Shown here one piece after another: positions 19,557-57,955 of a stretch of 64,000 nucleotides of DNA. The notes below the pieces were generated by a model. The model searched no databases. It had not been told where the DNA came from and worked only from the letters and a program-made list of their open reading frames with translations. The translations under genes were made by a program, and so were the position numbers. Source of the stretch: a virus; the IMG/VR virus record IMGVR_UViG_3300027976_003475; one strand, given 5' to 3'. Numbering within the stretch: the first letter of the stretch is position 1; each line of letters begins with the position of its first letter.

Positions 19557-20123
19557 ATGGGTCATCACACGTCTCGATTCGTCGCATTCGACTGCGAAAC
19601 CACAGGACTTGAAGCGGACGCCCGTATCATCGAACTCGCCGCCGTGCGGGTGGACGTCCCGACGGGCATTGTGGTCGCACGGTGGCGAACGCTGGTGAAC
19701 CCGGAGGTGCCCATCCCGGCCGCCGCGACGAGCGTGCACGGCATCACCGACGCCATGGTGCGCGAGGCGCCCACGATCGCGGAGGCGCTGCGGGAGTTCC
19801 TGGCCTTCATGGCGCGCGGCCCGGCGGTGGCGCATCACGCGCGCTACGACGTGCAGCGGTTGACCTTCGAGGCGCAGCGCGCGGGCGTCGCGCTCCCCGG
19901 CAACGTCCCGGTGTACTGCTCGATCGACGCGAGCCGCGTCGCGTTCCCCGGTGAGCCCAGCCGCGGCTTGCTGAACCTCGCGCGAACGCTCGGGCTCCCG
20001 CGCGAGGGCGCATCGCATCGCGCGGGCGGCGACGCCGCGCTGGTCGTGCAACTCATGCTGCGCTGCTTTGCGGCGGCACCCCGCGACCTGACCGGCTACG
20101 CGCCCGCGGTCGGGTCGCTTTAG
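19557..20123 (+). CDS. DEDDh 3'-5' exonuclease (DnaQ/epsilon-like)
   Basis: VAFDCETTGL, VHGIT, VAHHARYD, HRAGGDA. Confidence 0.9.
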   Translation: MGHHTSRFVAFDCETTGLEADARIIELAAVRVDVPTGIVVARWRTLVNPEVPIPAAATSVHGITDAMVREAPTIAEALREFLAFMARGPAVAHHARYDVQRLTFEAQRAGVALPGNVPVYCSIDASRVAFPGEPSRGLLNLARTLGLPREGASHRAGGDAALVVQLMLRCFAAAPRDLTGYAPAVGSL

Positions 20124-22870: not shown

Positions 22871-23663
22871 CGCGGGTGCGGCGGGCGGGCGCGATCTCGG
22901 GCGGGGTCAGCCGCACCGTGGGCGCCGGTGGCGCTGCTACTGGCGCGCGGGAGAGGTCACCGAGGGTGTACGCGGCCTCGTCGCTTCCCACCGGGTTGAT
23001 GTGCGCGAGGTTGGGGCTGATGGCCCACCCGGCGCCGCCCTGGCCGTCCGTCGCGATCATTTGCGACCCGGCGAAGCTGTGATCGTAGGCATCGGCCGCT
23101 TCATGCTGAAGCCGCGTCGCGGCCTCGCGGATGTTTTCGACCGTGCCGTTGTGGGGCGCCTGGAGCACGTCAATGGCGAAGCCGTCGCGCGAGCGCAGGA
23201 AATAGTACACCGTGAACGGCGCGTGACCCGGGCGACGCGAGGGCGCGGGGGCGCGGGGGCGCGGGGGCGCGAGCGCAGCGGGCCGCGCGTTGCGCTTTAC
23301 GGTCGACTCTCGCACCGCATCGCGCACGCCCTGATTGAACGCGGCGAGGAGGGCCTTGTCGTCCCCGATGTCGTAGCGATACGGGCTTCCCGACGCGCCC
23401 ATGTTCCAGAACGCAAGCTCTTGGACGGCGTACAGGAACGAGGCGGGGGACGGCTTCGGCAGCTTGTACGCGCCCGTGCTGTGGCGCTCATGGAGCTCCT
23501 GCTCTGACCGCAGCTCCACCTTCACCGCCTCGCGCCCGAACTCCGCCCCGAGCGAGCGCGCGACCGAGCGCGGGGCCGTGAACCTCACAGGGGCCGCATG
23601 GGGCACCTCGACGGCGAAAACTCTCTGGCCGTACTGCCCCGCCCTGTGTCCGTTGCTCTGCAT
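22854..23663 (-). CDS. Two-domain hypothetical protein split by a KRN/Pro linker
   Basis: ATG overlaps the desulfurase stop; STVKRNARPAALAPP junction. Confidence 0.65.
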   Translation of the reverse strand: MQSNGHRAGQYGQRVFAVEVPHAAPVRFTAPRSVARSLGAEFGREAVKVELRSEQELHERHSTGAYKLPKPSPASFLYAVQELAFWNMGASGSPYRYDIGDDKALLAAFNQGVRDAVRESTVKRNARPAALAPPRPRAPAPSRRPGHAPFTVYYFLRSRDGFAIDVLQAPHNGTVENIREAATRLQHEAADAYDHSFAGSQMIATDGQGGAGWAISPNLAHINPVGSDEAAYTLGDLSRAPVAAPPAPTVRLTPPEIAPARRTRATARR

Positions 23664-24877
23664 CACCGCACCCTGTTCTTTCGCGCGCACTCCACCAGAA
23701 TCCCCGCCGCTTCTTCGACTTGAGCCGCGTCGTTGCAGGCGCCCAGGCCCACACGCACAATCGCGCCGTCATCCGGCGCCCCGAGGGCCTCCAGCACATG
23801 CGAGCGCTGCCCCCCGAGGGCCTTGCAGGCGCTCCCGGCGGACACGCACACGCGCTCGCGCGCGTCGGCGTGGAAGCCCGCGGAGTCGATGCCCACCAGG
23901 GTCACGTTGAGGTTGTGCGGGAGACGCACCAGACGCACCAGCCGCTCCGGCGCGGCCCCTTCGTCCCAGCACGGCGGGTCGATCGCGCCGTTGACGCGCA
24001 CGATCTCCCCCAGGCCCGATTGCAGCCGCGCGAGCAGGAGGTCGCGCAGGTAGCGCAGCCGCGCCGCCTCGGGCCGCGGCCCGCGGGCCCAGCGCTCCGC
24101 CATCTCGTCGCACGCCACGCCGAACCCGGCGATGGCGTGGGCGTTGATCGTACCCGCGCGGCGGCCTCGCTCCTGGCCGCCGCCGAGGGTCTGCGGGTCG
24201 AGGAACTCCCACACCCGCGGGCGTGCGTAGAGAGCGCCCACGCCCGTCGGGCCGTAGAGCTTGTGAGCACTCATGGCGGCGGAGTCGATGTTCGCGAGGT
24301 CGAACGGCACGCGCCCGAAACTCTGGCAGAGGTCCGCGTGCAGGAGCACTCCACGGCGTCCGCAGAGCTCTCCCACCTCGTTGATGGGATTGATGCTGCC
24401 CACCTCGTTGTTCGCGCCCTGGAGCGCCACCATGACCGTCTGCGGGCGCAACCGGCGCTCGACGCACCCAACGCGCACGGCGCCGCCGTCGCGCACCGGC
24501 ACCAGCTCGAAGTCGATCTCACCGCGCGCCGCGGCGCGCTTCAACGGCGCGAGGATGGAGCTGTGCTCCGCGGCGCCCGCGAGCACATGCGGCTTGGCGA
24601 GTCCGCGCGCCTTCGCGCCTGCAATCGCGCCCATTACCGCGAGGTTGTTGGCTTCGGTCGCGCCGCTGGTGAACGTCACGTCTGCGGGATCACAGGCCCC
24701 CAGGAGCGACGCGACCGACGCGCGCGCGCAGTCGATGCGCTCCGCCGACGCGCGCCCCGCGTGGTGCGCGGACGAAGCGTTGCCGCACTGCTGCATCGCA
24801 GCAAGCACTGCTGCTTGAACGCGCGGCGAGGTCGGGGTGGTTGCGTTGCAGTCGAGGTAGATCAGTGGTCGGGGCAT
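23663..24877 (-). CDS. iscS: Cysteine desulfurase (IscS/NifS/DndA family)
   Basis: YLDCNATTP, FTSGATEANN, ANNEVG, SAHKLYGP (PLP Lys), GGGQERG, VSAGSAC (catalytic Cys). Confidence 0.93.
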   Translation of the reverse strand: MPRPLIYLDCNATTPTSPRVQAAVLAAMQQCGNASSAHHAGRASAERIDCARASVASLLGACDPADVTFTSGATEANNLAVMGAIAGAKARGLAKPHVLAGAAEHSSILAPLKRAAARGEIDFELVPVRDGGAVRVGCVERRLRPQTVMVALQGANNEVGSINPINEVGELCGRRGVLLHADLCQSFGRVPFDLANIDSAAMSAHKLYGPTGVGALYARPRVWEFLDPQTLGGGQERGRRAGTINAHAIAGFGVACDEMAERWARGPRPEAARLRYLRDLLLARLQSGLGEIVRVNGAIDPPCWDEGAAPERLVRLVRLPHNLNVTLVGIDSAGFHADARERVCVSAGSACKALGGQRSHVLEALGAPDDGAIVRVGLGACNDAAQVEEAAGILVECARKNRVR

Positions 24878-31623: not shown

Positions 31624-32559
31624 TCAGACGCAGTTGCGGTACTCGGTGTACTTGCGCGCGTCGAAGTCGGACGCGAAGCGGAAGCGCCCGTCCTGAAGCA
31701 TCCCGAAGGCGACGTCGACCACGCACACGAGGTCGAGCGCGAGGAGGGTGCCCAGCACGCGCGGCGCGGAGTCGGTGATGGGCTCGATGGCGTCCAGCAC
31801 GCCGTCGAGCCACTGGAGCGCCAGCCGGTTCGGCTGGTCGTTGTTCCCCGAGACGCCGGGGTTGACGAGGATGTCGTCGCGGAACGCGAACATCACGCTC
31901 GGGCGGTTGGCGCCGGGACCGGGGGGGCCGTTCTCCCAGCCGGTGCGGGCGGTCATGAGCTGCCCGACGCCCAGCATCAGGTTGCAGTCGGTGTTGGTGT
32001 TCACCGGGATGAGCTGCCACTCGCTGGCGCCGAGGGCCGAGATGAGCAGACGGTCGGAGAGGTTCCACTCGTTGTCGCCCACCACGCCGCCCGATCGCTC
32101 GACGTGAGCGGGGACGGTGCCGACCGCCGCGACGTTGCTGGCGTCGGGGGCGATGACGCGGATGCGCTCCAGCACGAGGCCGATGCCCAGGACGATGGCC
32201 TGATAGAGCATCGAGAAGCCGCCGTTGCGGGGGCTGTTGGTGATCTCCAGCGAGCGCACCGCCGGTGTCCCGGAGATGCCCGCGTTCACGAAGGGGTCGG
32301 GCACGCCGGAGAAGTTGTCGTTGACGCCGTGCTCGAACACGATCTGCGGGAGCGTCGCGCTGTTCTGCGGCACCCACGCGCCGTCGGCGTCGGCCCGGAA
32401 GATGATCGAGAGCTTGTAGTACGGGCGCGGGATCGCGCGCCCGAGCCCGAAGGCTTCGTTGGAGCCGAAACTCTGAGCGCCCTGGCCGAGCGAGGAAACG
32501 GGGACCGTCGCCTTGTCGGTGAACGCCTTGCTCATGTCTGCGGTGATGTCGGTGGGCAC
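31624..32559 (-). CDS. Putative major capsid protein (jelly-roll type)
   Basis: 311 aa from a GTG with AAGGA RBS; beta-rich; VFEHG..ITN..GGF..IVLGIGL pattern; low Arg/Ala bias; follows a basic/TM protein. Confidence 0.55.
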   Translation of the reverse strand: MPTDITADMSKAFTDKATVPVSSLGQGAQSFGSNEAFGLGRAIPRPYYKLSIIFRADADGAWVPQNSATLPQIVFEHGVNDNFSGVPDPFVNAGISGTPAVRSLEITNSPRNGGFSMLYQAIVLGIGLVLERIRVIAPDASNVAAVGTVPAHVERSGGVVGDNEWNLSDRLLISALGASEWQLIPVNTNTDCNLMLGVGQLMTARTGWENGPPGPGANRPSVMFAFRDDILVNPGVSGNNDQPNRLALQWLDGVLDAIEPITDSAPRVLGTLLALDLVCVVDVAFGMLQDGRFRFASDFDARKYTEYRNCV

Positions 32560-32656: not shown

Positions 32657-33382
32657 TCAGCCCAGCGCGTACTGCGCCATCGGCGTCGTGAAATTCACGA
32701 GGGAGTCGGGGCGGATGCTCTGCTCCGCCATGCCCGGCTGCCAGTCGGGCGACGCGGCGAGGTATCCGCCGGGGTTGTACCCGAAGAACCCGAGGGCGGG
32801 GTTGATCGGAGCGGCCAGCGCCGGGGCGGGCTGCCAGTCGGGCGACGCGGCGAGGTATCCGCCGGGGTTGTACCCGAAGAACCCGAGGGCGGGGTTGATC
32901 GGAGCGGCCAGCGCCGGGGCGGGCTGCACCGGAGCGGCCTGCGCCGGGTTGCTGATGGACGCGATGAGCTCCTGCGCGCGCGCGGTGATGCCCCAGGTGA
33001 GCACCCGACGCGAGAGCCCGAGCGTCACCGGCCCCGCGATCACGGCGACGGCGACGTGCGTGTAGCCCATCGCGAACAGGGCGCCACCGATCACGACGCC
33101 GCCCGCGATCAGGATGCCATCCTGCGCCATCGCGGAGAGCGACGTGGCGGACAGGAGGAGCATCCCGCCGATGGCGATGGCGGCGCCCGCCATGACGGCG
33201 CCGAACGCCTTGAGGACGCGCATCCCGAGGCCGCCCTCCATCCCGTTGCGCTTGTAGGCGCGGCGCCGGAGCTGCATCCCGTTGTGCTTGGCGCCGTTGC
33301 GCTTGGCCCGCTTGGTGCGCTTGCTCGCCGCCTTGTGGCTGTTGCGCTTGCTCGCCGCCTTCTTCTTCGTCGTCTTCGCCAT
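32657..33382 (-). CDS. Membrane protein with Lys/Arg-rich N-terminus (putative capsid-membrane/DNA linker)
   Basis: KRN, KRN, KHN and KRN in the first 50 aa, followed by 2-3 TM segments; GAGGA RBS. Confidence 0.75.
   Translation of the reverse strand: MAKTTKKKAASKRNSHKAASKRTKRAKRNGAKHNGMQLRRRAYKRNGMEGGLGMRVLKAFGAVMAGAAIAIGGMLLLSATSLSAMAQDGILIAGGVVIGGALFAMGYTHVAVAVIAGPVTLGLSRRVLTWGITARAQELIASISNPAQAAPVQPAPALAAPINPALGFFGYNPGGYLAASPDWQPAPALAAPINPALGFFGYNPGGYLAASPDWQPGMAEQSIRPDSLVNFTTPMAQYALG
32736..32927. repeat. 93-bp coding tandem duplication (PAPALAAPINPALGFFGYNPGGYLAASPDWQ x2)
   Basis: Copies start at 32736 and 32829. Confidence 0.9.
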
Positions 33383-34120: not shown

Positions 34121-35013
34121 CGACCGTACCCGAGCGTCCGCACGGCACGGCGCGTCTGGTACTCGCGCCACTTGACCCAGCCGAGCACAAACGCCGCAGC
34201 GCCCGCGTACGCGGCCGGGAGGAGCAGCACGCTCGCGTCGAACGTCGAGGGCGGGGCCCTTCCCTCGACGCGCGGGAGCTGCACCGGGTCCGTCTCGATG
34301 GGCGACGGCGGCGGCAGGGTGCCCGTCTGCTGCGCGAACGCGAGGCGCTGCGCGAGCGCGTTGGTCCGCGCGTTGGTCTGCGCGACCACCTGCGCGACGC
34401 GCGCGTCCTCACGAATCCGCACCTGTTGGGTAGCAGCCCCGGCTTCGACCACGCGGGCCTGCACCACGGTGTTGTACGCCGCGACGGCCGCGACGGCCGC
34501 GACGGCTACGACGACCCCCGCCACGAGATAGGCGAGCCCGCCGGGATTGTTCTCGGGCACGAGCACAAGCTGCCCCGGCTGGAGTCGCAGGTACGCCAGC
34601 GCGCCGCCGCACGCATCGAACGCCGCGCGCCGCTGCGCGTCCGTGACGGTCGTCGTCGCCGCGGCACCCGGCGCGACGGCCAGGGCGCCGCCGGGTCGGG
34701 CCTGGGGCAGCACCACGTCGCCGTGCTGATAGTCCCCCTGCGCGGCCCCAAGCACGAGCTCTCGCTCGCGCGACACCCCGAAGGGGAACGGCAGCCCGTT
34801 CGCGAGGCGCGGCACGGAGGCGGGCGGGCGGGCGAGCATTGATTGCGACCACGCGAGCTGCGCGACGATCGCATTGCGCTCGAACACCGACACCAGCCCG
34901 CCCTGCGGCGCGGTCGTGAGCCAGCGCTGATATGCAGTCGTGAGGGCGTACCCCGCGACTGAATCGGGCCCACCCACACCCACCAGCGCCACCGTGTCAC
35001 CCAGGGCGCTCAC
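34117..35013 (-). CDS. Membrane protein (two hydrophobic segments)
   Basis: LAYLVAGVVVAVAAVAAVAAY and a C-terminal TM followed by basic residues. Confidence 0.7.
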   Translation of the reverse strand: MSALGDTVALVGVGGPDSVAGYALTTAYQRWLTTAPQGGLVSVFERNAIVAQLAWSQSMLARPPASVPRLANGLPFPFGVSRERELVLGAAQGDYQHGDVVLPQARPGGALAVAPGAAATTTVTDAQRRAAFDACGGALAYLRLQPGQLVLVPENNPGGLAYLVAGVVVAVAAVAAVAAYNTVVQARVVEAGAATQQVRIREDARVAQVVAQTNARTNALAQRLAFAQQTGTLPPPSPIETDPVQLPRVEGRAPPSTFDASVLLLPAAYAGAAAFVLGWVKWREYQTRRAVRTLGYGR

Positions 35014-36053
35014 TTGAGCAGCGCCCCGAGCGCGGCGGCGGCGGCGGCGGCGGTCAGGCCGCCCGCGGTGAGCACGCCCGCGGTCTTGTCCGCGTTGCGG
35101 TAGGTCGATGGGTCCGCGAAGTCGACCACGATCCCGTGCGGGTTCGGGAGCGCCATGCGCGCACCGGGAATCTTGCCGTACCCCTTGAGCTTGCAGACGC
35201 CGTTCTCATCGACGTACTGCTTGGGGCAGGGCACGCCCGGCGTCGACGGGCCCGCCACCATCGCCCCAAAGGGCGAGAGGGCGACGCTGGCGACGCTGGC
35301 GCCCCGTTCGTCCTTCTGCGGCGCCACCGGCGCGAACTGGAACAGCGTGCCGTTCACGTTCACGTTCATGGGGAGGGGCGGCGCCGGGGGCGCGTAGTTC
35401 ATCACCGCGCCGGGCGGCGCCGGGGGCGCCGGGGGCGCCGGGGGCGCCGGGGGCGCGTAGTTCATCACCGCGCCGGGCGGCGCCGGGGGCGCGTAGTTCA
35501 TCACCGCGCCGGGCGGCGCCGGGGGCGCCGGGGGCGCCGGGGGCGCCGGGGCGGGCTGCACCGCCACCGGCTGCGGCGTTGTACTCAGCGGCGCCTCGCG
35601 GCCCGTGAGGAGGTCGAGGAGGCCGATGTAGCTCGACTCACGGCCGTTGGGGCTGCGCGCGAGCGCCGGGCGCGACGTGTTCGGGAAGTCGTTGCGCGCC
35701 GGGAAGAGCACGGCGCCCCCCCCGAGGAGCGCGTTCGAGAGCGCGTACCCGAGCATTTCGGGGCCCGCCGTCCAGTTGCGCGGCACGTTGAGGCCCGCTG
35801 ACCGCGCGTGATTCTCGATCGCGGTGCGGGTCACGTCTCCGAAGATGCCATCCACGTCCGTCCCGAAGTAGCGCTGAATCACGCGGACGACATACGGCGC
35901 CTGCGTCCGCACCAGTCGAGCGCCGCCCGACGGCGGCTCCCAAAAGAACGCGAGCGCGCGCTCCGTGCCGTCCGTCCAGCTTGACCGGCGCGGGTTGCCG
36001 ACGGTCAGATACCGCTCGATGGGGAACCGCGCGGCCGTGAGCGCGAGCGTCAT
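35010..36053 (-). CDS. Membrane-anchored protein with a PG-binding-like motif and Pro-rich stalk
   Basis: DVDGIFGDVTRTAI; PPAPPA/GAVMNYA repeats; C-terminal hydrophobic anchor. Confidence 0.6.
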   Translation of the reverse strand: MTLALTAARFPIERYLTVGNPRRSSWTDGTERALAFFWEPPSGGARLVRTQAPYVVRVIQRYFGTDVDGIFGDVTRTAIENHARSAGLNVPRNWTAGPEMLGYALSNALLGGGAVLFPARNDFPNTSRPALARSPNGRESSYIGLLDLLTGREAPLSTTPQPVAVQPAPAPPAPPAPPAPPGAVMNYAPPAPPGAVMNYAPPAPPAPPAPPAPPGAVMNYAPPAPPLPMNVNVNGTLFQFAPVAPQKDERGASVASVALSPFGAMVAGPSTPGVPCPKQYVDENGVCKLKGYGKIPGARMALPNPHGIVVDFADPSTYRNADKTAGVLTAGGLTAAAAAAALGALLK

Positions 36054-37999
36054 GACGCCCTCGCAGCGCGGCGCGCGCGGCCGTGGCTCCGCCTCGGGCG
36101 GCCGTTGTGCTTGCGGCTCCGCCTCGGGCGGCCGTTGTGCTTGCGGCGGGTGAGCAGGTACGCGCCCCCACCGATCACCGCGAGCAGGAGCGCGCCGATG
36201 CCGACCTGCGTGGCCGTGATGCCGGTGGGCGGCGTCTGCGGCGTCTGCGGCGTCTGCGGCGTCTGCTGCGTCTGGAACTGCTGCACCGTCTGCTGCGTCG
36301 CATTCGCGGCGGCCTGGAGGCGCGCGATTTCGGCGGAGTCGGTGGACGCCGTGCGGCCCGCGGCGAGCTGCGCCATGGCCTGCTGGTGCGCGTACTGCGC
36401 GTTGCTCGCCGCGAGGTCATCCACACGGCCCTGGTGAATGCCGGTGATGATGACGCCGATGGCCTGGAGCGCCGCCGCTGACACCGACACGAACGTAGAG
36501 GGACGGGCCTGGAACTCGCGCCAGAGTTGCGCGGCGACGTCAGGGTGCCCGGACAGCAGTTGCGACCACTGCGCGCCGGTGAGGCCCGACGCCGCGAGGA
36601 ACTCCGCGGGCGCGGCGGCTGGGGTGGGCGTCGGGGCCGCGGGCGGCCGGGGCTTGGGCGGCCGGGGCGCGGGCGGCCGGGGCGCGGGCGCGGGCGCGGG
36701 CGCGGGCGGGTTGCCAGCGGGGCGGATGAACCCCGCGGGAGCGATGGCGTCGCCGCGGATCGCGTCCTGCACCGCGAGTTGGAACAGCACCTTCCGCGGG
36801 TCACCGAAGAGGAGCGGCGCCATGTGCCCGGCGAGGAGGTCGGACACCAGCACGCCGTCGATCGTCCCGGGGCCCGCGAGCGCGTTCGCGAGCGCGAGCG
36901 CGTACGGGTCACCCAGGAACGCGGAGCCGCGGAGGATGGCGGCCTGATACGACGCGGGGAGGACCGCGAAAAGCTGGAGCGCCGAGTTGGAGTCGATGAG
37001 CGCGAGCTCTCCGGCGGGGTTGAACTCGTGCGCGAACGCGGAGCGGGCGTCGCCGTACGCGCGCGTCCAACGATCGGCCGTAGCCCCGGCCAGCACGACG
37101 GAGCCCGCGGGGAGCACCTCGTGAGCAGCGAGGGAGGCCACGGCCGTACAGAACTGCCGCACCTCGCTGCTGTTGCGCTGGAACGACCCGAAAAGCCAGT
37201 CGGCGCCGACCCGCGTGGCTTGCGGGTCGCCGCTCATGGCGTCGCGCACCACGGCCTGCATCAGCTCGTACCGGGCGAGCGTCCCGCTGGTGAGCACGCG
37301 GAGCTGCACCTCCGTCGGGAGCGCCAGAAATGCCCGATAGCAGTCGTCGGCCGTGGACGCCTGCCGGGCGACCGCGCCTGCCGGGTTCGCCGCCTGCTGC
37401 TGGGCGTACGCCGCGCGCGTCCGAAACACCTCTCGCTCCTTGGGGGTCATCGCGTCCAGCTCCGCCTGCGTCGGGGCGCTGGCGGTGCGCGCGGCGGGCG
37501 TGGACACCTGCGCGCTCGCCGGGTTCTCGGGGGTCAGGGTGACCACCTCGCCGGGCTTGCCCGCGCGCGCGAGGGTCACGGGGGGATAGCCCGTCACGTC
37601 GCTTCCCTCCTGGCGCGCGAGGGTCACCGGGGTCACCGGGGTCACCGGGGTCACCGGGGTCACCGAGCCCCCCCCACCCGCCACGCCGTCGCGGCGCGGG
37701 ACGCCGCCGTTGAAGGCCACGTCACGGACCACCGCGGGAATCGCGGCGCGCGCGTCGGTGGGCCGGGTCTGCTCGACGGTGATCGTGCTCGACGGCTGCC
37801 TCGGGTCGAGCCCGAGCGTCACCTCGCGACGCGGCGTCGGGGAAACGTCGCCCGGATCGACCGCACCCCGCCGCTCGCCGCGTTGGCCGCGCTCGCCGCA
37901 TCGGTCAGCGTTGACCGCGTTGTTGAGGGGCGTCCCGTCGGCGTTTTCGGGGTTGATCTTGCCGTCGATGGAGCACGTTGGCGTGTTGCAGTTTCCCAT
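36050..37999 (-). CDS. Large tail-anchored protein (putative virion membrane/ejection protein)
   Basis: GGAGG RBS; TM VGIGALLLAVIGGGAYLL, then RKHNGRPRRS x2. Confidence 0.7.
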   Translation of the reverse strand: MGNCNTPTCSIDGKINPENADGTPLNNAVNADRCGERGQRGERRGAVDPGDVSPTPRREVTLGLDPRQPSSTITVEQTRPTDARAAIPAVVRDVAFNGGVPRRDGVAGGGGSVTPVTPVTPVTPVTLARQEGSDVTGYPPVTLARAGKPGEVVTLTPENPASAQVSTPAARTASAPTQAELDAMTPKEREVFRTRAAYAQQQAANPAGAVARQASTADDCYRAFLALPTEVQLRVLTSGTLARYELMQAVVRDAMSGDPQATRVGADWLFGSFQRNSSEVRQFCTAVASLAAHEVLPAGSVVLAGATADRWTRAYGDARSAFAHEFNPAGELALIDSNSALQLFAVLPASYQAAILRGSAFLGDPYALALANALAGPGTIDGVLVSDLLAGHMAPLLFGDPRKVLFQLAVQDAIRGDAIAPAGFIRPAGNPPAPAPAPAPRPPAPRPPKPRPPAAPTPTPAAAPAEFLAASGLTGAQWSQLLSGHPDVAAQLWREFQARPSTFVSVSAAALQAIGVIITGIHQGRVDDLAASNAQYAHQQAMAQLAAGRTASTDSAEIARLQAAANATQQTVQQFQTQQTPQTPQTPQTPPTGITATQVGIGALLLAVIGGGAYLLTRRKHNGRPRRSRKHNGRPRRSHGRARRAARAS

Positions 38000-38054: not shown

Positions 38055-40019
38055 TCAACGACCGCGGCGAGTGTGGGCGCGGGCGCGGGCTTTCCGTCGA
38101 AGCGCGCGGTTGGGCTTTGCGCGGTGCCGCGGCTTGCGGGTCGCGAGGTAGTAACCGCCGCCCACGAGCACGGCGAGCACGAGCGCGCCGAGCCCAACCT
38201 TCGCGCCCGGTGGCAGCCCGGACGAGGGCACCATGACTGCCGGGGCATCGGGCGTAAGCTGGTAGGTCTGAGTCTGCGTCTGCGTGCTCCCTGGTTGAAG
38301 CACGGGCAGACCAATCCCGAGCAGGCCGAACGCAAGCAGGCCGAACGCAAGCTGCGGGCGCGCGGGCATCCCGATTGTCTGCGCGTACGCGACCGCGAAC
38401 GACGCGCGCGTTTGCTGAATCGCGAAGGGGGAGAACGCCGGGCACATCGCGCCGAAGACGTCCACGTTGACCACCGCGCCGGAGGGCTGGAGCGCGCTCA
38501 TCAGCGCGATGGTGGCCGTGGTCACGGCGCCAATGACCAACGCCACCACCGGGCCCGCGACCGGGATACCCGCTACGGCGGCAGCGGCGGCACCACCCGC
38601 CCCCTGCACGAGCTGCACGTTCGCAAGGTTCTCGCGCTCGCGGGTGAGCGCCCGCCGGGCCGCGTCGACCTGGGCAGACCCCGCAAGGCTTTCGATCAGG
38701 GTGTTGTACTGCCCGGCCATGCGAATGTTCCGCATGGTGTTTGAGCGCCGCATGGTGCGAACAAATTCGGAAGGGCTCATCGCGAGCACCCACTCCGCGA
38801 AGCTGCGCCCGCCAAACTCGGGCTGCGGCGCGAAATACATGCGCCAATACCACTCAAGCGGCGGAACCATCCACAGTCGGCTCTTGCCAGTGACGTTCTT
38901 CCGCGCGTTGAAAAAAGGCGCGCGCCACTCGGGATTGGCGCCGTGCACCATATAGAAATCGCCGTTGGGGTCGACCGGACTGGCGCGGTCGTAGAAGTCT
39001 CCGCCGTCCGTGGCGCGCAGCACCACCGCGGGCGTCGGGCTCCACCCGCCCGTCGCCCGCCCGTTGTACTGGAACCACACCCGATGCGTCTCCCCGGTGG
39101 GGGCGACGCAGGTGTCGGAGTTCACCGGGTTGACGACCGACGAGTCACCGCTGCGGCACCCGATGGACTCGCTGTTGAACCGGGCCTCACTCCCGAAAAG
39201 CACATCACCGGGCCCCCAGGTCGAGGCGCGGGCTCCCCAAGTGGCCTGTTGAATCGCAACGCCGCGGCGGCGCCACCCGCCGACCACATAGGGCGCAGGG
39301 GAATACGGCGCATAGTAATCGCGAATGACCGACGAGGACATGCCCTGCATGTAGGCGTCGGAGTCGAACGCGAAATAACCCCACAGACGTTCGGCCACGC
39401 GGCGCAGCGGCTCGATCGCGCTGTAACAGACGTTGATGGATCGCAGAAACTTCGTGAACGACGCGACCGCGGCGGCGATCACGGCGGGTTGTGCGTCGCG
39501 GGGTAGGGCGTCGATCACCGCCGCGATTCGCTCCCACTCCGGCGGCGTCTCGGGCGCGAGTTGCGCGAACCGAACGGCCGTCGTCGCGGGGAGCGCGAGG
39601 AGGTCGCGCATGGTCTCCGCGTCGGAGCTGTCCATCGGGGACCATGCGTTTTGCGAGGCCGCCGTCAGCCGCTCGCGGGCGACGGCGACGGTGGTGTCTT
39701 CGGTGATGGCGAGAATGCCGAGGAGCCGCAGTTTGTTCGCGCGCGTTCGACCCGCCGGGTAAACGCCCCCGGCGCGCTTGGCGGCGGGGTTGAACGGCAC
39801 GTCTGCGGCCCGGCGCTCCCCGATCATCGGGTTGCGGGCCTCGCGGAGCCACGCATAGGCCGCGACCGGCTCGTACGAATGCATGAAAGCCTCGATGCCC
39901 TGGGCCTCTGCCTGGGCCTCGGGGACGGTCATCGTGCGGCCCGCGAGCGCGCCTTGCCGCGCTTCGGCCGCCGTGCCCGTGTCCGTGGTGATGTAAAGCA
40001 GCGCGCGCTCGACGCTCAT
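38055..40019 (-). CDS. Large tail-anchored protein (putative virion membrane protein)
   Basis: TM VGLGALVLAVLVGGGYYL, then RAKPNRALRRK. Confidence 0.75.
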   Translation of the reverse strand: MSVERALLYITTDTGTAAEARQGALAGRTMTVPEAQAEAQGIEAFMHSYEPVAAYAWLREARNPMIGERRAADVPFNPAAKRAGGVYPAGRTRANKLRLLGILAITEDTTVAVARERLTAASQNAWSPMDSSDAETMRDLLALPATTAVRFAQLAPETPPEWERIAAVIDALPRDAQPAVIAAAVASFTKFLRSINVCYSAIEPLRRVAERLWGYFAFDSDAYMQGMSSSVIRDYYAPYSPAPYVVGGWRRRGVAIQQATWGARASTWGPGDVLFGSEARFNSESIGCRSGDSSVVNPVNSDTCVAPTGETHRVWFQYNGRATGGWSPTPAVVLRATDGGDFYDRASPVDPNGDFYMVHGANPEWRAPFFNARKNVTGKSRLWMVPPLEWYWRMYFAPQPEFGGRSFAEWVLAMSPSEFVRTMRRSNTMRNIRMAGQYNTLIESLAGSAQVDAARRALTRERENLANVQLVQGAGGAAAAAVAGIPVAGPVVALVIGAVTTATIALMSALQPSGAVVNVDVFGAMCPAFSPFAIQQTRASFAVAYAQTIGMPARPQLAFGLLAFGLLGIGLPVLQPGSTQTQTQTYQLTPDAPAVMVPSSGLPPGAKVGLGALVLAVLVGGGYYLATRKPRHRAKPNRALRRKARARAHTRRGR

Positions 40020-42010
40020 CGCGGGCTCACCAGCGCCACCGGCGCGAGGCTCTTCAGGTCGAGCTCGAAGGGCAGATAACCGAGCGCGTTGACCTTGCCC
40101 GTGGAGAGCACGGCGATCTCGCGGGCGAGGCGGGCCGCCTGCGGTACGGTAGCGCGCATCCCGGTCATCCCGTGCCCCTTCACGAACACGGCATAAATCG
40201 CGCGCCCCAGCGCGTCGGGCGCGGTCAGTCGCTCGAACTCCTTGACCACACGCCGCGCGGTCGCGTCGGGGAGAAACTTGTTCTGTTCGTTGCTGAACAT
40301 CGTGGCGTCAGAGAGGTAGCCGCAGCGCAGCCCCCTCGCGTCGCACGACACCAACCCGTCGAGGCCCGCGGCGAATTGCGAGGCGCGGCGAATGTCAAAC
40401 GCCACGTCCACCTCCGCGCCACCCGGCGGCACCGACACGTTGCGGACCACCAGCGGCGTCGACACGTTGCTGGCGTCGCGGTACAGCGCGATCCGTACGA
40501 CCGCACCCGCGGCCGGAAGGGCGACGGCGCAGGCGTCGGGCGCGGCGCACGTCTGCGGCCCGGCGGCGCCGCCGACGATCGCCACCCGCCAGCCCTCCGC
40601 GATGCCCGTCACGCGCAGCGTGGTGCCCAGCTCCGCGCCCACCGTCGGCGGGCTCTGGATGAGGCTCTCGATGAGGTCCGCGAACGGCACGATGTTCTCA
40701 CCGGCGCGCAGCTCCACCACGTTCGGCAGCGCGCGGTAATCGGTCAGCACCGGCTGCCCCGAGGCCGAGGCCGAGGTCGATCGGTACGCCTGGACGCGGT
40801 ACACCCCCGGCGCGACGCGACCGGCGAACGTGGTGCGGTCGGGCTGCTGCTCAAGCTGAATCGCGGGCGCGTCATTGTCCGCCGGGCGCGTCAGCTCCAC
40901 CACCCACGCCGAGCCACCGTCCAGCGGGATCGCGCCGGGCATGGCGTTCGTGAGCGGCGCCCCCATCACCTTCACCGCCGCCAGCGGCTCCGAGGCGTCG
41001 GGCGTCATCGCGGCGTAATCAACGCGCTGATCGCCGCTCGCGCTGATCGACACGCGCTGGCGGCGCGAGGCGCCCTCCCGCGTGGTCACGCGCACCTCGC
41101 GGGCGGTGTTCGCCGTGGCGGCGGGCAGCGGCAGCGCCCACGACACGCCATCCGCGAGCCACACGCCGCGCGCGTCGTCGAGCCGGGTCTCCCCCAGGAA
41201 CGTCGCGCCGTACGGAGGCATCGGAGAAATCACCAGCCGCAGCGGGCGCAGCGTTTCGAGGCTTGTCAGCATCGTCGGCGTGAGGCCCATCGTCGGGGTA
41301 GCGACCAAGCCGGGGGCGGGAGCGGGCGGGGCGCCGTCAAGACCACCGATGAAGTCCACCGGCGGGCGACCACTGCGGTTGATGACCAAGCGGCCCGCGG
41401 GCGCGAACGCCGCCGTGTCCTCGAAGCCGTAGACCCGCGAACGGAAGTCGGGCCCGAGGCGCGCGAGCGCGTCGTACGGGTTCTCGCCAAGCCGCGCGCC
41501 GGGCAGCGTGGCGTCAAGCCAGAGCCAGCAATCGTCGCCGCGCGACGGGTCCACGCACACCTGCGCGGACACATGGTTGAGCGGCGAGCCGGGCTGCTCC
41601 ATCCACACGACGCGAGCGCGGAGACCCACCACCATGCACAGCGCGACGAGTAGCGAGGCCAAGTCCTCGCAGTCACCGCCACCCTTCGGGGCGTTGGTGA
41701 TCGGAGAGACGGTGCGACCGCCCTCCCCTCCGAGCGTCCACAGCACCGTCTGAAGCACCTCCTCCCCAGCGGGGTCGGGGGCGTAGTCGACGAGCAGGTG
41801 CACCGCATCGCCCAACCACTGCACCAGCTCCTCGGGCGTCGGCACTCGCCCGAGGCGCTCCCCAAGCATTGCCGTCAGGCCAGCCCCCAGGATTTTCACG
41901 CGGTCGTCCGCGGCGCCCGCGGCAGCGAGCCGCATGAGCAGGTCGAGCCGCGCCAGCGGGAGCATGGTGGGGGGGATCAGAATGCATCGCGCGCAGATTT
42001 CCGTCGCCAT
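40016..42010 (-). CDS. Transglutaminase-like (Cys-His-Asp) protein with beta-rich C-terminal domains
   Basis: GDCEDLASLL, LNHVSAQV, WLWLDATL; start codon uncertain. Confidence 0.78.
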   Translation of the reverse strand: MATEICARCILIPPTMLPLARLDLLMRLAAAGAADDRVKILGAGLTAMLGERLGRVPTPEELVQWLGDAVHLLVDYAPDPAGEEVLQTVLWTLGGEGGRTVSPITNAPKGGGDCEDLASLLVALCMVVGLRARVVWMEQPGSPLNHVSAQVCVDPSRGDDCWLWLDATLPGARLGENPYDALARLGPDFRSRVYGFEDTAAFAPAGRLVINRSGRPPVDFIGGLDGAPPAPAPGLVATPTMGLTPTMLTSLETLRPLRLVISPMPPYGATFLGETRLDDARGVWLADGVSWALPLPAATANTAREVRVTTREGASRRQRVSISASGDQRVDYAAMTPDASEPLAAVKVMGAPLTNAMPGAIPLDGGSAWVVELTRPADNDAPAIQLEQQPDRTTFAGRVAPGVYRVQAYRSTSASASGQPVLTDYRALPNVVELRAGENIVPFADLIESLIQSPPTVGAELGTTLRVTGIAEGWRVAIVGGAAGPQTCAAPDACAVALPAAGAVVRIALYRDASNVSTPLVVRNVSVPPGGAEVDVAFDIRRASQFAAGLDGLVSCDARGLRCGYLSDATMFSNEQNKFLPDATARRVVKEFERLTAPDALGRAIYAVFVKGHGMTGMRATVPQAARLAREIAVLSTGKVNALGYLPFELDLKSLAPVALVSPR

Positions 42011-42074
42011 CCGGGGACAGTACGCGCGGCGCATCGCGTTGACAACGGCATCGCGCATACCCATACCGGCGGAC

Positions 42075-42449
42075 ATGGCGAACGGTGTGGGGGAGGTCAT
42101 TCGCGCGGCACGCGAGGCACGGGGCACCGGGGGCCGGGCGCTGGCCCGCGCCGTGGGTATTTCAGCCTCCTACCTGTGCGACGTCGAGCACGGACGCCGC
42201 GCGCCGTCCCTGGACGTCCTCACGCGCCTCGCCGCACACCTCTCGATTGAGTCGGCGTTGCGCGATCACCTTGACACCGGCACGGAGGCATGGCTGCGCG
42301 AGACGCCCGGCGTCGTCGCGTTGCTGCGCGCGCTTCGCGCCGCGGGCGCGACGGCCGACGACCTGACGGCGATGCAGCGGGCCGCGGAGCGCCTGCGGGT
42401 CACCCGCTGCGTGGCCGTCCCCGCGGGCGCGGCGTGCGCCCATGAATGA
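42075..42449 (+). CDS. XRE-family HTH regulator
   Basis: IRAAREARG..LARAVGISASYLCDVEHGRRAPS. Confidence 0.85.
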   Translation: MANGVGEVIRAAREARGTGGRALARAVGISASYLCDVEHGRRAPSLDVLTRLAAHLSIESALRDHLDTGTEAWLRETPGVVALLRALRAAGATADDLTAMQRAAERLRVTRCVAVPAGAACAHE

Positions 42450-43866
42450 GCTCGCGTTCGCGTGGTGCGTCGATTGTCAGCGAATGGTCCCGCGGCTGTC
42501 GTGGCTCGATCACGACGCCCACGAAATGCGGGAGGCGCACCCGAAGGGCGCGCGGCGCGCGGCGCCGCTCGGCACGGGCACGACCGACGCCCCTTTGCGC
42601 CGGTGGGTGTCGGGCCTCGACGGTTGGGATCGATGTTTGGGCGGTGGGATCGTCCCCCGAACCCGCATCCTGCTGACGGGCGACCCTGGTGCGGGAAAGA
42701 GCACGCTGACGTTGCTGGTGCTCTACCTGCTCGCGGCGCAGGGTCTTCGCGCGCTGCTTTTGACCTCCGAGGAAACCCGCGAGGAAATTGAGCTCCGGTT
42801 CCGGGGCATGGGCCTTCCGCCGCAGCCGCGACTGTGGGTGTACGCCACCGAATCGTGGGAGCACGGGCGCTCCGCCATCGTCGAGCACAACCCCCAGGTG
42901 GTTGTGCTCGACTCGCTGCAAGAGTTCGGCACGGCGGCTGCCAAGGGCGAGCCCGGCAGCGACGCGCAGATCCAGGGCCTCATGCGACTCACCAAAGGCG
43001 TCGTGAATGAGAAGGTGCAGCGCTCCATGATTATTATTGGGCACGTCAACGCGGACGGCGACGCCTACGGCCGCATGGCGAACGTGCACAAAGTCACGAC
43101 CTGGGTGCATTTCAGTCGCGACGTGGCGGGCCGCCGCGTGCTGACCACCCGAAAAAACCGACACGGGCGCTCGGGCGAGGTGGCGTTGTTCGAGTTTCCT
43201 CCCAACGGCAAGCGCATTCGCGAGATTCCCGACGCGACGGCGCTGTTGCTCGCGGACCTCCTGGGGCGAGAGGGGGTGTGTGCGTACCCGGTCCTCCCCT
43301 CCGAGCGTCTGGCGCGGGCGGTGGTGGTGCCCGTCGAGGCGTCGGTGTCGCCGCCGAAGGCGGTTTCGGAGCCGCGCGTGCGCGCGTCGACCGGGTTGCC
43401 CGGCCGCTTGCTGGACGACGCGCTCGACCGCCTGGGCGACGCGGCGGTGAAGCTCACCGACCGCTCCGTTCGGGTGCAGGTGCCGCTCCTGGGCGAGATG
43501 CCCGTCACGGACGCAGCCACCATGCTCGCGGTGTGCTGCGCGATCACGGCGCAACTGGAGCGGGTCTCGCTGGGCGCCGTGGGCGCCTTTGGGGCGCTGG
43601 GCGCGTCGGGCCGGGTGATGCCCGACCCGCAGACCGACGCACGCCTCGCGGAGCTGGCGCGCGCCGGGGTGACGCTGGCGTTCGGGCCCCCACTGCCCCC
43701 GACCGGCGTGGTGATGCCGCGTGGGCTGACGTACGTCCCGATTGAATCGCTGGACGACCTGATAGAGCACGTCCGGGCGCGCGCGGCGATGGTGCGATTG
43801 CAGGAGGCTGGCGTGGAGGCGGCGCGGACGGCCGCGCGCCTCGACGCCGCAGAGGGGCGGCCGTAG
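42442..43866 (+). CDS. radA: RadA/Sms-like recombination ATPase
   Basis: GDPGAGKSTL, LTSEE, VVLDSLQ, KNRHG motif, Lon-like C-terminal domain. Confidence 0.85.
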   Translation: MNELAFAWCVDCQRMVPRLSWLDHDAHEMREAHPKGARRAAPLGTGTTDAPLRRWVSGLDGWDRCLGGGIVPRTRILLTGDPGAGKSTLTLLVLYLLAAQGLRALLLTSEETREEIELRFRGMGLPPQPRLWVYATESWEHGRSAIVEHNPQVVVLDSLQEFGTAAAKGEPGSDAQIQGLMRLTKGVVNEKVQRSMIIIGHVNADGDAYGRMANVHKVTTWVHFSRDVAGRRVLTTRKNRHGRSGEVALFEFPPNGKRIREIPDATALLLADLLGREGVCAYPVLPSERLARAVVVPVEASVSPPKAVSEPRVRASTGLPGRLLDDALDRLGDAAVKLTDRSVRVQVPLLGEMPVTDAATMLAVCCAITAQLERVSLGAVGAFGALGASGRVMPDPQTDARLAELARAGVTLAFGPPLPPTGVVMPRGLTYVPIESLDDLIEHVRARAAMVRLQEAGVEAARTAARLDAAEGRP

Positions 43867-49343: not shown

Positions 49344-49736
49344 GTGCCCACGCTCGGTTATCAGAACCGACAGGCCACGACGCCGTTTGTCGTCACGAAC
49401 GGGGTGGAGCTCGACGTGCTCGCGACGACGGACAGCGCCAACGACTACCTCGACGGCATGAGCGTCAACGGCGGCGCGACGCTGCACCTCGAAGTCGATG
49501 CGCTGCTCGCGCTCGCGAACCTCGAACTCAAGGTGTACCGGCGCTCAGACAGGGGCTCCGCGTGGGGCATTTTCTTCGTCCAAACGGTGGTGCTTGGGAA
49601 GGTGCACACCGTCGACGTCGGTGGGCTGGCAGGGTACTCTGACGTGCGCTGCACGCTCAAGAGCACTGCGGCCGATGGTGCGGTCACGGTCGCCGCCAAG
49701 ATCACGATTTTTCCAGCGCCGACGCCGCAGCCCTAA
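49344..49736 (+). CDS. Small beta-sandwich-like protein (putative structural)
   Basis: GTG just after the upstream stop; alternating-strand pattern. Confidence 0.55.
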   Translation: MPTLGYQNRQATTPFVVTNGVELDVLATTDSANDYLDGMSVNGGATLHLEVDALLALANLELKVYRRSDRGSAWGIFFVQTVVLGKVHTVDVGGLAGYSDVRCTLKSTAADGAVTVAAKITIFPAPTPQP

Positions 49737-50563
49737 CGCAGCTCCGCGAACTCCGCGAGCGCCGACGCCGGGATGGTGTCGAGCGCCGCAAGCCGGGCCT
49801 CGCCGTCAGGCCCGCGGTAGCTCTCCGCGCTTTGGTACTGACGCCAGTACGGGCACCCTGCGCCTTGCTGCGCGCCGCGCAGTCGATCCGCGAGGCGTCC
49901 GTTGCCGGGCGTCGTCGCGTCGGGCTCATCGGTCGCGAGGTACACGTCGCAGAACGCCTCCGCGTCCCGGTTGGTGGTGACCACCGTGGCGCGGCCATCG
50001 TTGTACCGGGCCAGGAGCAACGGCCCGCAACGGCCCGCCACGCGCGACGTCGCGCGGCCGTCGCGCTCGGCGCCAACGTCGTCGAGAATCAGCAAATCGA
50101 CGCGGCGCCAGCGGTCGCGCGCGTCCACATGCGTCGACCAGTCGGTGTCGGGGACCGCGCCCAACTCCTCCGCCGTCAGGAATTGTGCATCCCGAGGCCA
50201 CCGCGCCGCGATCCAAGCGCCCGCCGTGCTTTTCCCGCAGCCGGGCGGGCCCTGGAGGATCAGCACCATCCCCGGCGACTCCCCCGTGGGCAGTCGACGC
50301 CCGCGGCGCCACCGCAGGGCGTCCAGGGCGTCCAGCAAGGGCGCCGTGGCAGCCGCCGCGTCCCGACGGACTGCGGCGCGTACGCAAGCGTCGCGGGGCA
50401 CGCCTCGGGCTTGCAGCGCCACCTCGAGTCGCGCCGCCCGTTGTTCGGCGTCGTGACGCACGCGCCGCAGGGCGCGCGCCTCCGGGTCAAGCTCTCGCAG
50501 CCGGGCCAGGGTGACGTCGAGCAGGCTTCCCACCGGCGCCGCGGGGCGGGGGCGCTCCGTCAC
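49733..50563 (-). CDS. DnaC/IstB-like AAA+ helicase loader
   Basis: GPPGCGKST, LLILDDVG, VVTTN; downstream of the rep-like gene. Confidence 0.85.
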   Translation of the reverse strand: MTERPRPAAPVGSLLDVTLARLRELDPEARALRRVRHDAEQRAARLEVALQARGVPRDACVRAAVRRDAAAATAPLLDALDALRWRRGRRLPTGESPGMVLILQGPPGCGKSTAGAWIAARWPRDAQFLTAEELGAVPDTDWSTHVDARDRWRRVDLLILDDVGAERDGRATSRVAGRCGPLLLARYNDGRATVVTTNRDAEAFCDVYLATDEPDATTPGNGRLADRLRGAQQGAGCPYWRQYQSAESYRGPDGEARLAALDTIPASALAEFAELR

Positions 50564-56640: not shown

Positions 56641-57038
56641 AGGTCACCGCCAGCCGCCGAAGGGCCCCGCCACCGCTCCGCCCTTGCCCGGAGGTCGACC
56701 ACCACAGCCCGCAGTAGGTCTCCGCGGAGGTCGCCCGCGGCGAGCGCGGCGGCGGTGCGCTCGTAATCGTCGGCGGTGTCCGCAAGCGTCCCGAGCGCAG
56801 CCTTCCACACGTCCCCGTGCATCGGGAGCGGGCCGTAGTCGTCGGACGTGGCGAGCGAGCAGCCCGGCTTGTGCTGGGACGCGCGAGGCCCCGCGAACTC
56901 CTCGCGCAAGATGGATGCCCCGCACTCGCGGCAGCTTGACCGCGCCGTGACATGCGCGATGTCACAGGCACGGCAGCGCCAGCCGGGGCATCCCGCAGAG
57001 TCGGGTTCGTTGCAGTCGATGCACGTCGGCAGACTCAT
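56637..57038 (-). CDS. Cys-rich hypothetical protein
   Basis: CIDC, CRAC, CREC; ATGA overlap. Confidence 0.55.
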   Translation of the reverse strand: MSLPTCIDCNEPDSAGCPGWRCRACDIAHVTARSSCRECGASILREEFAGPRASQHKPGCSLATSDDYGPLPMHGDVWKAALGTLADTADDYERTAAALAAGDLRGDLLRAVVVDLRARAERWRGPSAAGGDL

Positions 57039-57955
57039 CGCGCGGCGCGCAGCTCGCGGAGGGTGTTGGGCCCGATCACCCCATCGGCCGTAAGGCCGTG
57101 CGCCGTCTGGAACGCTTCGACGGCGAGGGGCCCGTGGCCGTGCGCCGCCCGGAGCTTGCGCGCCAACTGGAGCGCCTCCAAAGCCTCGGGCGACCACGAC
57201 CCCGGACATGCCCACAGTCGCGCCGTAGGGGCCTCGCAGAGCCCCCACACCAGCGCGCCCACGTCATGCCCCCATCCCTGGAGGTACGCGCTCCAGCAAG
57301 GCCCGCCGGGCACCTTGTCGGTGGGCACACCACCCATCAGCGCGAGGGCCTCCCACCGGCCCCGTGAGGTCGCGATGCGGCGCTCAAGGTCGCGCTGTCG
57401 CGCGACACGCCCCGCCTGCGCCGGGTAGTGCTGGGGAGCGTGCAGGTCGACCCGGGTCAGAATGGGCTGCCAGGGCAGCCGGAATCCAGGCATGTCGTGC
57501 GACGTCCACGACACCGCGCAGCGGTCCTTGAGCACGTCGTGCGTGGCGTCGAGCAAGGCCGTCGCGAGCTCGATCAGCCGATGACGCTCGGGGATGTCCG
57601 CGACCGCGCTCGTCCAATCGCCAGACGGTGCGCCGTCGGAGGCGCCCTCGCCGTTCACCTCGAACACCTCCGCGCCCATGTCGAGGGCCACGGCCGCGCA
57701 CCGCCGTACCTCCGCCACGGCCACCGCGCGCCCGCGCTCGCGACCCAAACGCGAGAGGTAGTTTCCTGGGATCGCGAGCCACACGCGCGCGCTCGGATTG
57801 ATCCGCCGCACGGCCTCGGCGCTCCGCGCGTCCGTGGCGTCGGCGGCGGTGTGCAGCGTCACCGTGTCGCACGCGCGGAGCACGGCCTCGTGGGCTTCGA
57901 GGTCGCGCGGAAGTTTGCCGTAGAACGTCGCGCCGACGCCGGGCGCGGGCCTCAT
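57035..57955 (-). CDS. Putative endolysin (glycoside-hydrolase-like barrel + PG-binding domain)
   Basis: C-terminal VEAFQTAHGLTADGVIGPNT; EVNGE and APQHY motifs. Confidence 0.65.
   Translation of the reverse strand: MRPAPGVGATFYGKLPRDLEAHEAVLRACDTVTLHTAADATDARSAEAVRRINPSARVWLAIPGNYLSRLGRERGRAVAVAEVRRCAAVALDMGAEVFEVNGEGASDGAPSGDWTSAVADIPERHRLIELATALLDATHDVLKDRCAVSWTSHDMPGFRLPWQPILTRVDLHAPQHYPAQAGRVARQRDLERRIATSRGRWEALALMGGVPTDKVPGGPCWSAYLQGWGHDVGALVWGLCEAPTARLWACPGSWSPEALEALQLARKLRAAHGHGPLAVEAFQTAHGLTADGVIGPNTLRELRAAR

Follow-up and report, generated by a model that had tools for sequence, protein, structure and literature searches.

The stretch of DNA analysed here, 64,000 nucleotides of the IMG/VR virus record IMGVR_UViG_3300027976_003475 taken in full (the window), encodes on its minus strand a 664-amino-acid (aa) enzyme with a transglutaminase-fold catalytic head, and this enzyme opens an operon that is conserved among uncultured relatives. 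By analogy with the tailless, membrane-containing Salisaeta phage SSIP-1, whose protein gp34 carries the same kind of domain, the operon likely builds a tailless membrane-containing particle with the enzyme on board. The role favoured for it, at a probability of roughly one in three, is that of a hydrolase carried by the particle and directed at the host envelope during entry. The enzyme is a variant of a known, barely studied kind, and its parts are arranged as follows.

40016..42010, minus strand: transglutaminase-fold enzyme gene, 664 aa plus stop, recognised by G+C content at third codon positions (GC3), Pfam PF01841 and 419 homologues
41426..42010, minus strand: catalytic head, residues 1-195, with a helical N-terminal part, the Cys114-His146-Asp166 core and a family-specific GAxxGExPxxAxxR tail
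41246..41425, minus strand: Pro/Ala/Thr-rich linker, residues 196-255, without secondary structure, variable in alignment length, predicted local distance difference test score (pLDDT) below 40
40397..41245, minus strand: three beta-sandwiches, PEGA/carboxypeptidase-regulatory-like, residues 256-538 (DSSP strands 291-535)
40019..40396, minus strand: C-terminal alpha/beta domain, residues 539-664 (about 125 residues), no family assigned (13-sequence alignment A6)

The open reading frame (ORF) at 40016-42010 is a genuine gene. In a window of 70-75% G+C, its GC3 reaches 0.89, against 0.72 and 0.55 at codon positions 1 and 2, which favours it over the shadow ORFs. The longest version of the frame opens with GTG at 42127; the ATG at 42010 is preferred as the start because the words that follow it are kept at the N-terminus of relatives with 49-84% identity, and because it leaves 64 bp to the divergent helix-turn-helix (HTH) gene, if the latter begins at 42075, a gap identical to that in the related locus L008. 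At its other end the gene overlaps the start of the next one in an ATGA (40016-40019). An original prediction, made by reading the sequence alone, had drawn the gene within these same limits and placed it first in its operon; both statements hold, the former on GC3, N-terminal conservation and the divergent gap, the latter on the ATGA overlap and on the same position in all relatives with context.

The assignment of the head to the transglutaminase/papain-like fold (clan CA) is secure. The entire protein matches PF01841 Transglut_core (clan Peptidase_CA) with 26.1 bits against a curated cut-off of 23 (E 1e-5), the head domain alone with 28.4 bits (E 2e-6), and 46 of 57 family members match the model individually, the best with an E value of 1.4e-12. 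The triad is read from the motifs GDCEDL (Cys114, codon 41669-41671), NHV (His146, 41573-41575) and LDAT (Asp166, 41513-41515), a combination well beyond what chance would give. An exhaustive HMMER search of 1.84 billion representative proteins returned 419 homologues at E<=1e-3, the majority of them about 150-250 aa long and aligning solely to profile positions 10-195. Over 142 aligned homologues Cys114 is retained in 141 and His146 in all, while position 166 is shared between Asp (54) and Glu (88). The triad named from the sequence at the outset is thus borne out, by a Transglut_core score above cut-off and by conservation in 141-142 of 142 homologues, and the thiol enzyme with this intact Cys114-His146-Asp166 triad is probably active. 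Near-invariant positions also lie outside the Pfam core, namely Tyr76 in a PDP-x-G-x-E word, Trp136, Gln139 and the tail G-A-x-x-G-E-x-P-x-x-A-x-x-R, and the family is therefore a distinct subfamily.

Structural comparison agrees with the fold and stops short of the reaction. The AlphaFold model of the whole protein is poor (mean pLDDT 53), with acceptable local values of 64-87 in the core. Residues 12-188 of the model were matched by VIA with Z scores of 8.9 (4kty), 8.7 (3ly6, 8oxv), 8.5 (3kd4) and 8.1 (3isr); between Z 7.6 and 8.9 stand factor XIII, TG2, TG3, two putative bacterial cysteine proteases, TglA and PNGase (Z 7.8), followed lower down by LapG (4fgo, Z 6.6) and the phage enzyme PeiP (8z4f, Z 6.5, rmsd 3.5 over 118 residues). 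Since these rows, from 8.9 to 6.5, mix cross-linkers, putative proteases, PNGase, LapG and PeiP, the model-based Z scores neither discriminate cross-linkers from hydrolases nor identify the reaction. Small stand-alone transglutaminase-domain proteins from AFDB clusters resemble the head at template modelling (TM) scores of 0.65-0.68.

Other resources were silent on the family. PF01841 is the sole Pfam model reported for the enzyme and the 46 of 57 relatives, with no match to PF12386 (C71), PF13471 or PF06035; PHROGs, PADLOC and NCBIfam returned nothing for the enzyme or its operon neighbours, and no significant PDB sequence match came from profiles built on the full-length, head or C-terminal alignments. 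A pattern scan of IMG/VR found no relative of the enzyme, and tblastn of the head against 50,697 GenBank phage records produced chance matches only (E>=3). The family profile accordingly recovers relatives that virus catalogues miss: 419 metagenome proteins, none of them in IMG/VR.

Behind the head, the "several beta-rich domains" of the original prediction resolve, in the AlphaFold model and by structural matches, into three beta-sandwich units at about residues 256-538. Carboxypeptidase regulatory-like and PEGA proteins of AFDB clusters match them at E 3e-7, and VIA relates them to CBM20 and Ig-like domains at Z 6-8. Their number varies among the multi-domain relatives, which measure 625-1365 aa, and stand-alone heads of 198 aa lie at the other end of the range. 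The C-terminal domain shows invariant RA, G, GxRxGY, EF and G positions in alignment A6 and exists alone too, as a separate 158-aa protein (P0053). A Pfam scan of its 13 members at E<=10 gave noise and PDB sequences no match; a low-confidence Atlas model looks OmpA-like (TM 0.57, feature score 0.75), a weak lead uncorroborated by sequence, and a complex prediction with three copies of the domain scored 0.00, which speaks neither for nor against an assembly. Neither a signal peptide nor a membrane segment is present in the 664-aa enzyme.

The closest characterised analogue is gp34 of SSIP-1, which matches Transglut_core at E 9e-7 with the same Cys-His-Asp order and is among the 13 of 57 SSIP-1 ORFs annotated "structural protein". 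It leads the main structural block of that phage, ahead of gp37, gp40, gp41, gp43-48, gp53 and gp57, as the window enzyme likewise stands first. Alignment of gp34 with the family profile by hhalign gave a probability of 97.7% (E 2.5e-12, 133 columns), and the match includes the Y-x-PDP-x-G-x-E-x-x-Q word ahead of the catalytic Cys. The lead position of the window enzyme is itself conserved: in every relative with context (L001, L003-L012) it is the first gene of the operon, divergent from the HTH gene and/or an AAA_25 ATPase gene. About 9 kb downstream of it lies the gene of a highly conserved 311-aa beta-sandwich protein, an order kept in seven of seven related loci that cover both genes, and the coupling of the enzyme to membrane and beta-sandwich genes persists across elements whose other genes differ. 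By analogy with gp34, the enzyme likely travels with the particle.

Under the favoured reading, the flexible linker and the beta-sandwich stalk would hold the catalytic head off the particle, on which the C-terminal domain would dock the enzyme. The cysteine would then attack an amide of the host envelope, with a peptide or isopeptide bond in the stem of the peptidoglycan as the likeliest target, so that the wall might be opened locally at entry, jointly with tail-anchored membrane proteins encoded downstream; exit would fall to separate lysis genes encoded elsewhere in the window. A PG_binding_1 protein encoded at 57035-57955 fits such a distinct exit system. This entry role is favoured because the stalk is variable and of surface type, gp34 is virion-located, the 347-aa tail-anchored protein of the operon (described below) has a sub-threshold peptidoglycan-binding-like motif, and the phage enzymes PeiP and PeiW provide a precedent: they have a transglutaminase-type fold and hydrolyse an isopeptide bond of the cell wall (PMC10318531). 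In these pseudomurein endoisopeptidases of methanogen phages (MEROPS C71, PF12386) a virus-encoded fold is joined to non-catalytic domains, as here; they differ in that the catalytic domain is C-terminal, the wall-binding repeats are of another type, and they act at lysis in archaea, whereas the host wall in the present case would be murein.

Several observations weigh against this entry role. The 2027-aa Verrucomicrobiota protein used as a control contains a cellular domain that scores nearly as high as gp34 (96.7%, E 4e-10), for which reason orthology is not claimed: gp34 and the window enzyme are best regarded, by analogy, as sharing superfamily kinship and a functional parallel. Moreover, gp34 (304 aa) has a hydrophobic, Gly-rich C-terminal membrane anchor, whereas the window protein is soluble, lacks an anchor, and unlike gp34 has three beta-sandwiches and a separate C-terminal domain. 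The 198-aa stand-alone forms do without stalk or docking domain, the OmpA-like resemblance at TM 0.57 on a poor model is the sole hint of a wall-binding C-terminal domain, and the mean pLDDT of 53 limits the full-length model as a whole. In Pfam the enzyme matches none of the Peptidase_C71, NlpC/P60 and CHAP models. The capsid assignment of the 311-aa protein, discussed below, depends on non-significant structural matches, and the activity, the substrate and the particle are alike predictions.

No other genes of the SSIP-1 and window modules are detectably related, and the 311-aa protein shows no detectable relation to gp40 or gp41. The gp34 product (L022 6297-7211) ends in a G-G-G-Y-L anchor resembling those of the large operon proteins of the window, minus their basic tail. 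The control protein, from a Roseibacillus metagenome-assembled genome (MAG; L018 9023-15106), has in its transglutaminase domain the D-A-T-I-P-G-A-R-V-G-E word of the family, and this domain could be a cellular source of, or sister to, the viral enzymes. A search of the open literature yielded no paper tying transglutaminase-fold enzymes to membrane-containing tailless viruses.

The surroundings of the enzyme gene comprise the following features.

42011..42074, no strand: divergent intergenic control region between the enzyme and HTH genes, 64 bp, as in L008
42075..42449, plus strand: divergent Xre-type HTH regulator (Pfam HTH_31, E 2e-10), its start at 42075 inferred
42442..43866, plus strand: AAA_25/KaiC/DnaB-like ATPase (Pfam), a conserved divergent neighbour in relatives
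38055..40019, minus strand: 654-aa membrane protein with membrane segments at its C-terminus and a KPN-containing Arg-rich tail, ATGA-coupled to the enzyme gene
35010..36053, minus strand: 347-aa tail-anchored protein with a sub-threshold peptidoglycan-binding-like motif
32657..33382, minus strand: membrane protein with a basic N-terminal tail and four K-[RH]-N copies, its N-terminus cited in the original prediction as an example of tagged sequence; the L001 orthologue keeps KSN and KRN
31624..32559, minus strand: 311-aa beta-sandwich protein, candidate major capsid protein (conservation, AlphaFold model, structural rows)

The HTH neighbour is common to L003-L005, L008, L009, L011 and L012. 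The start set by the gene caller, 41934 (155 aa, 41934-42449, plus strand), would run into the 5' end of the enzyme gene; the start at 42075 gives an overlap-free product of 124 aa that begins M-A-N-G-V and fits the 122-aa L008 orthologue. A scan of the divergent intergenic region for promoter and terminator consensus sequences found no sigma-70 consensus. The adjoining AAA_25/DnaB-like ATPase is probably replicative. Downstream of the enzyme the operon runs through two large proteins, each with membrane segments at the C-terminus and an Arg-rich tail, and several tail-anchored proteins to the 311-aa and a 175-aa beta protein, and none of these downstream products has a match in Pfam, PHROGs, PADLOC or NCBIfam. 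The peptidoglycan-binding-like motif of the 347-aa protein is a helix pair at residues 56-84, matched by PG_binding_1 and PG_binding_3 at E 0.004-0.2, below the cut-offs, and at the same position in four of five orthologues.

Some further regularities were noticed in these genes. The C-terminal anchors of the two large proteins (38055-40019 and 36050-37999, both minus strand) close with G-G-G-x-Y-L, after which the Arg-rich tail begins. The minus-strand genes at 36050-37999, 35010-36053 and 32657-33382 contain in-frame tandem repeats, PVT in five copies, QTP in four and KHNGRPRRS in two, along with a proline-rich unit of about 17 aa in three copies and a unit of about 31 aa in two. Repeat copy numbers vary between contigs of one element, with products of 643 aa (L003) and 646 aa (L004), and another repeat-bearing product is shorter in L003 (210 aa) than in the window (about 241 aa).

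The 311-aa protein is far better conserved than the enzyme, with 79% identity to its L001 counterpart against 51%. Its AlphaFold model has a pLDDT of 71.5 and a predicted TM score of 0.72. In a Foldseek comparison with 350,000 PDB chains, the best 50 rows were all jelly-roll capsid proteins, none of them significant (E>=0.14); the VIA rows are weak (Z<=4) and lean the same way, and no significant match was obtained in PDB (Foldseek, VIA), BFVD or Atlas. These comparisons lend moderate but indecisive support to a capsid protein and, with it, to a structural operon, so that the term used for the operon in the original prediction appears plausible. In the same protein, a disordered N-terminal arm ends in A-F-G-L-G-R (residues 36-41) before the ordered sandwich, with F37, G38 and L39 invariant or nearly so in 23 homologues. 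The protein encoded at 32657-33382 has G-G-L-G-M-R directly before its membrane segment, and S-G-L-G-M-R stands there in L001; neither G-L-G (15 found, 16 expected) nor [LMI]xGxG (12 against 7.7) is enriched genome-wide in the window.

The original prediction had gone beyond fold and position and cast the enzyme as a candidate processor of short K/R-x-N tags, either cutting at them or forming isopeptide links through their Lys and Asn residues. The tag itself is in part confirmed. An approximate window proteome of 56 genes contains 30 cases of Lys two positions ahead of Asn where 8.6 would be expected (3.5-fold, p 1e-8), whereas Arg in that position is not enriched, nor is Lys before any of six control residues. 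Arg, Pro or His mostly fills the position in between; the copies are located at protein termini beside basic tails, and L001 orthologues retain them, as in the RKPN kept in the tail of the counterpart of the 654-aa protein. K-x-N is thus a genuine motif of the element. Of 42 occurrences of the corresponding codon pattern AAR-NNN-AAY, 28 fall in coding frame 0, a preference that fits a protein-level motif, with a DNA-level origin not fully excluded.

The tie between tag and enzyme fared less well. K-x-N is enriched together with the presence of the enzyme in L011 (4.3-fold) and L012 (2.0-fold), whereas the enzyme occurs with the motif at background level in SSIP-1 (18 against 17 expected), in L010 (0.9-fold) and in L013, L014 and L017 (about 1.0-fold, in small samples). 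No relative with tags and without the enzyme was found, and seven of seven related loci with enough coverage carry it; the enzyme family is nevertheless far wider than the tag, a breadth that leaves a link neither proven nor refuted but withdraws the support that co-occurrence would have given. Proteins with the tag are, besides, encoded throughout the genome. That the enzyme recognises Lys-x-Asn beside the Arg-rich tails of some 15 unrelated proteins, DNA enzymes included, and then clips them or joins Lys to Asn is improbable. Fold, intact triad, sandwiches and lead position of the earlier interpretation stand, together with a probable role in a particle module by analogy with gp34; its specific enzyme-tag link is not supported. 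If the enzyme did act on the tags, this would be new maturation or cross-linking chemistry: joining would make the first enzyme-made Lys-Asn chainmail in a virus, clipping would recall the adenovirus-like release of basic peptides, and in either case a large tailless bacterial virus would be sorting or fixing its cargo by a new system of tag and enzyme.

These considerations bear on two of the rival explanations. Adenain (MEROPS C5, clan CE), a small cysteine protease of the virion, acts on many particle proteins, trimming them at a short consensus beside basic DNA-binding peptides, and a maturation protease of this kind, cutting virion-bound proteins at K-x-N beside their Arg-rich tails and releasing basic peptides or cargo, is unlikely but worth keeping in view. 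The motif is real and specific for Lys rather than Arg, sits at termini beside basic tails with its place kept in L001, and is enriched in L011 and L012; in a scan of about 50 window proteins no other gene was recognised as having a protease fold, and the 198-aa stand-alone relatives of the enzyme match adenain in size. The likeness to adenain is functional only, since that protease belongs to clan CE with the order His-Glu/Asp-Cys and another site consensus, and the window enzyme to clan CA with Cys-His-Asp. Nearer in fold is McjB, a cysteine protease with the transglutaminase fold, which cuts its precursor at a defined site and so matures it (PMC10318531). The lasso-peptide leader peptidases of this type (Transglut_core3, MEROPS C96) give the maturation protease a precedent, although the window enzyme has no PF13471 match, no lasso-peptide genes are present, and the proposed substrates are many large proteins. 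The periplasmic LapG/BTLCP proteases (PF06035, MEROPS C93) are related at the level of the fold (Z 6.6 to 4fgo), their model being unmatched by the window enzyme. No member of the transglutaminase fold is known to cleave after Asn, which counts against the protease, as do the enzyme-bearing genomes in which the motif is not enriched (SSIP-1, L010, L013, L014 and L017, with small samples for the L loci), the spread of the tagged proteins over the entire genome, and the variable surface-type stalk, for which an internal enzyme would have no obvious need. A cross-linking transamidase, which would make isopeptide bonds between virion proteins, an enzyme-made chainmail possibly through the Lys and Asn of the tags, is the least probable of the explanations weighed. 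Factor XIII, TG2 and TG3 are the top structural rows (Z 8.7-8.9) and the fold does include true cross-linkers; the animal enzymes (EC 2.3.2.13) share the triad order and the succession of core and beta-sandwiches, and the tags would supply both an amine and a carboxamide. The identity to these enzymes is 14-15%, however, GDCEDL around the Cys differs from the animal motif, the sandwiches are PEGA/carboxypeptidase-regulatory-like, and the acyl donor of canonical transglutaminases is Gln, so that the donor, if the tags were substrates, would have to be Asn instead. PNGase does attack the side-chain amide of Asn with the same fold (PMC10318531; Z 7.8), but the Z scores fail to separate cross-linkers from hydrolases, most bacterial PF01841 members are thought to be hydrolases (PMC10318531), and the phyletic mismatch between tag and enzyme applies here as it does to the protease.

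Two further explanations take the enzyme out of the particle or the element out of the virus world. The enzyme might be a cytoplasmic modifier, a deamidase, protease or acyl-transferase whose targets are host or viral proteins and which is expressed along with the late genes yet stays outside the particle; we consider this quite improbable. Such a role would agree with the absence of a signal peptide or membrane segment, with a promoter-proximal gene adjoining a regulatory region, with the deamidase and protease effectors included in the fold (PMC10318531), and with distant stand-alone relatives that lie beside D5-like primase-helicases in MAG elements where no 311-aa homologue is detectable. 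It is at odds with the conserved tight coupling to membrane and beta-sandwich genes, with the stalk-like sandwiches, and with the annotation of the analogue gp34 as virion-borne. There is also a slim chance that the element is non-viral, the operon being an envelope or surface apparatus of a plasmid-like element whose components the enzyme would process or anchor. Library scans of the window proteins recognised no terminase, portal, known capsid or packaging ATPase family, neither IMG/VR nor the GenBank phages hold a match, and the capsid-like match of the 311-aa protein is below significance. Yet conjugation, partition and secretion families were not found in the scans of window proteins either, the 50 best structural rows of the 311-aa protein are without exception viral jelly-roll capsids, and the content of the window is phage-like (DpdA, DUF3560, a sigma-like HTH and a lysis-type PG_binding protein), to which the SSIP-1 analogy may be added. 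Against these alternatives the particle-borne entry hydrolase remains the reading preferred here, and the conserved, probably active enzyme offers in any case a handle on maturation and envelope breach in poorly known viruses.

The element that encodes the enzyme is present in complete form in freshwater metagenomes. Contigs of 72,585 and 72,545 bases, recovered from two samples, carry an identical protein; because these near-equal contigs break at different places, a circular or permuted genome of about 72.5 kb is suggested. No RNA data are listed among the sequencing runs that hold the element. Contigs of the relatives span 64-168 kb and are high-GC and uncultured. In a scan of one genome per prokaryote species, heads with 37-41% identity were found solely in MAGs of Myxococcales, Polyangiales and "Deltaproteobacteria". 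These heads (L013, L014, L016, L017) stand alone, beside D5-like primase-helicases and DUF3560 proteins, that is, in mobile elements, which may represent a second, more distant group using the same enzyme; the 311-aa profile was not found in five MAGs holding distant enzyme relatives, a result made uninformative by the incompleteness of the bins. A transglutaminase-fold enzyme would head the particle-gene block in unrelated lineages of tailless phages with a membrane, SSIP-1 on the one hand and a Myxococcota-linked group on the other.

Elsewhere in the window, a 276-aa protein (49733-50563, minus strand) has a Walker A motif near residue 100 and an N-terminus with a weak resemblance to sigma-70 region 4; its conservation extends to L001 (59%) and L011 (52%), and it may be the missing packaging ATPase or a regulator. 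The window also encodes DpdA (E 5e-57), a class-V aminotransferase/cysteine-desulfurase-like protein, an SNF2 helicase and two methylase-like proteins, a group located at 20120-21133, 23663-24877 and 7932-11741 on the minus strand and at 11271-13631 and 14918-18511 on the plus strand, and several of its members bear terminal K-x-N tags.

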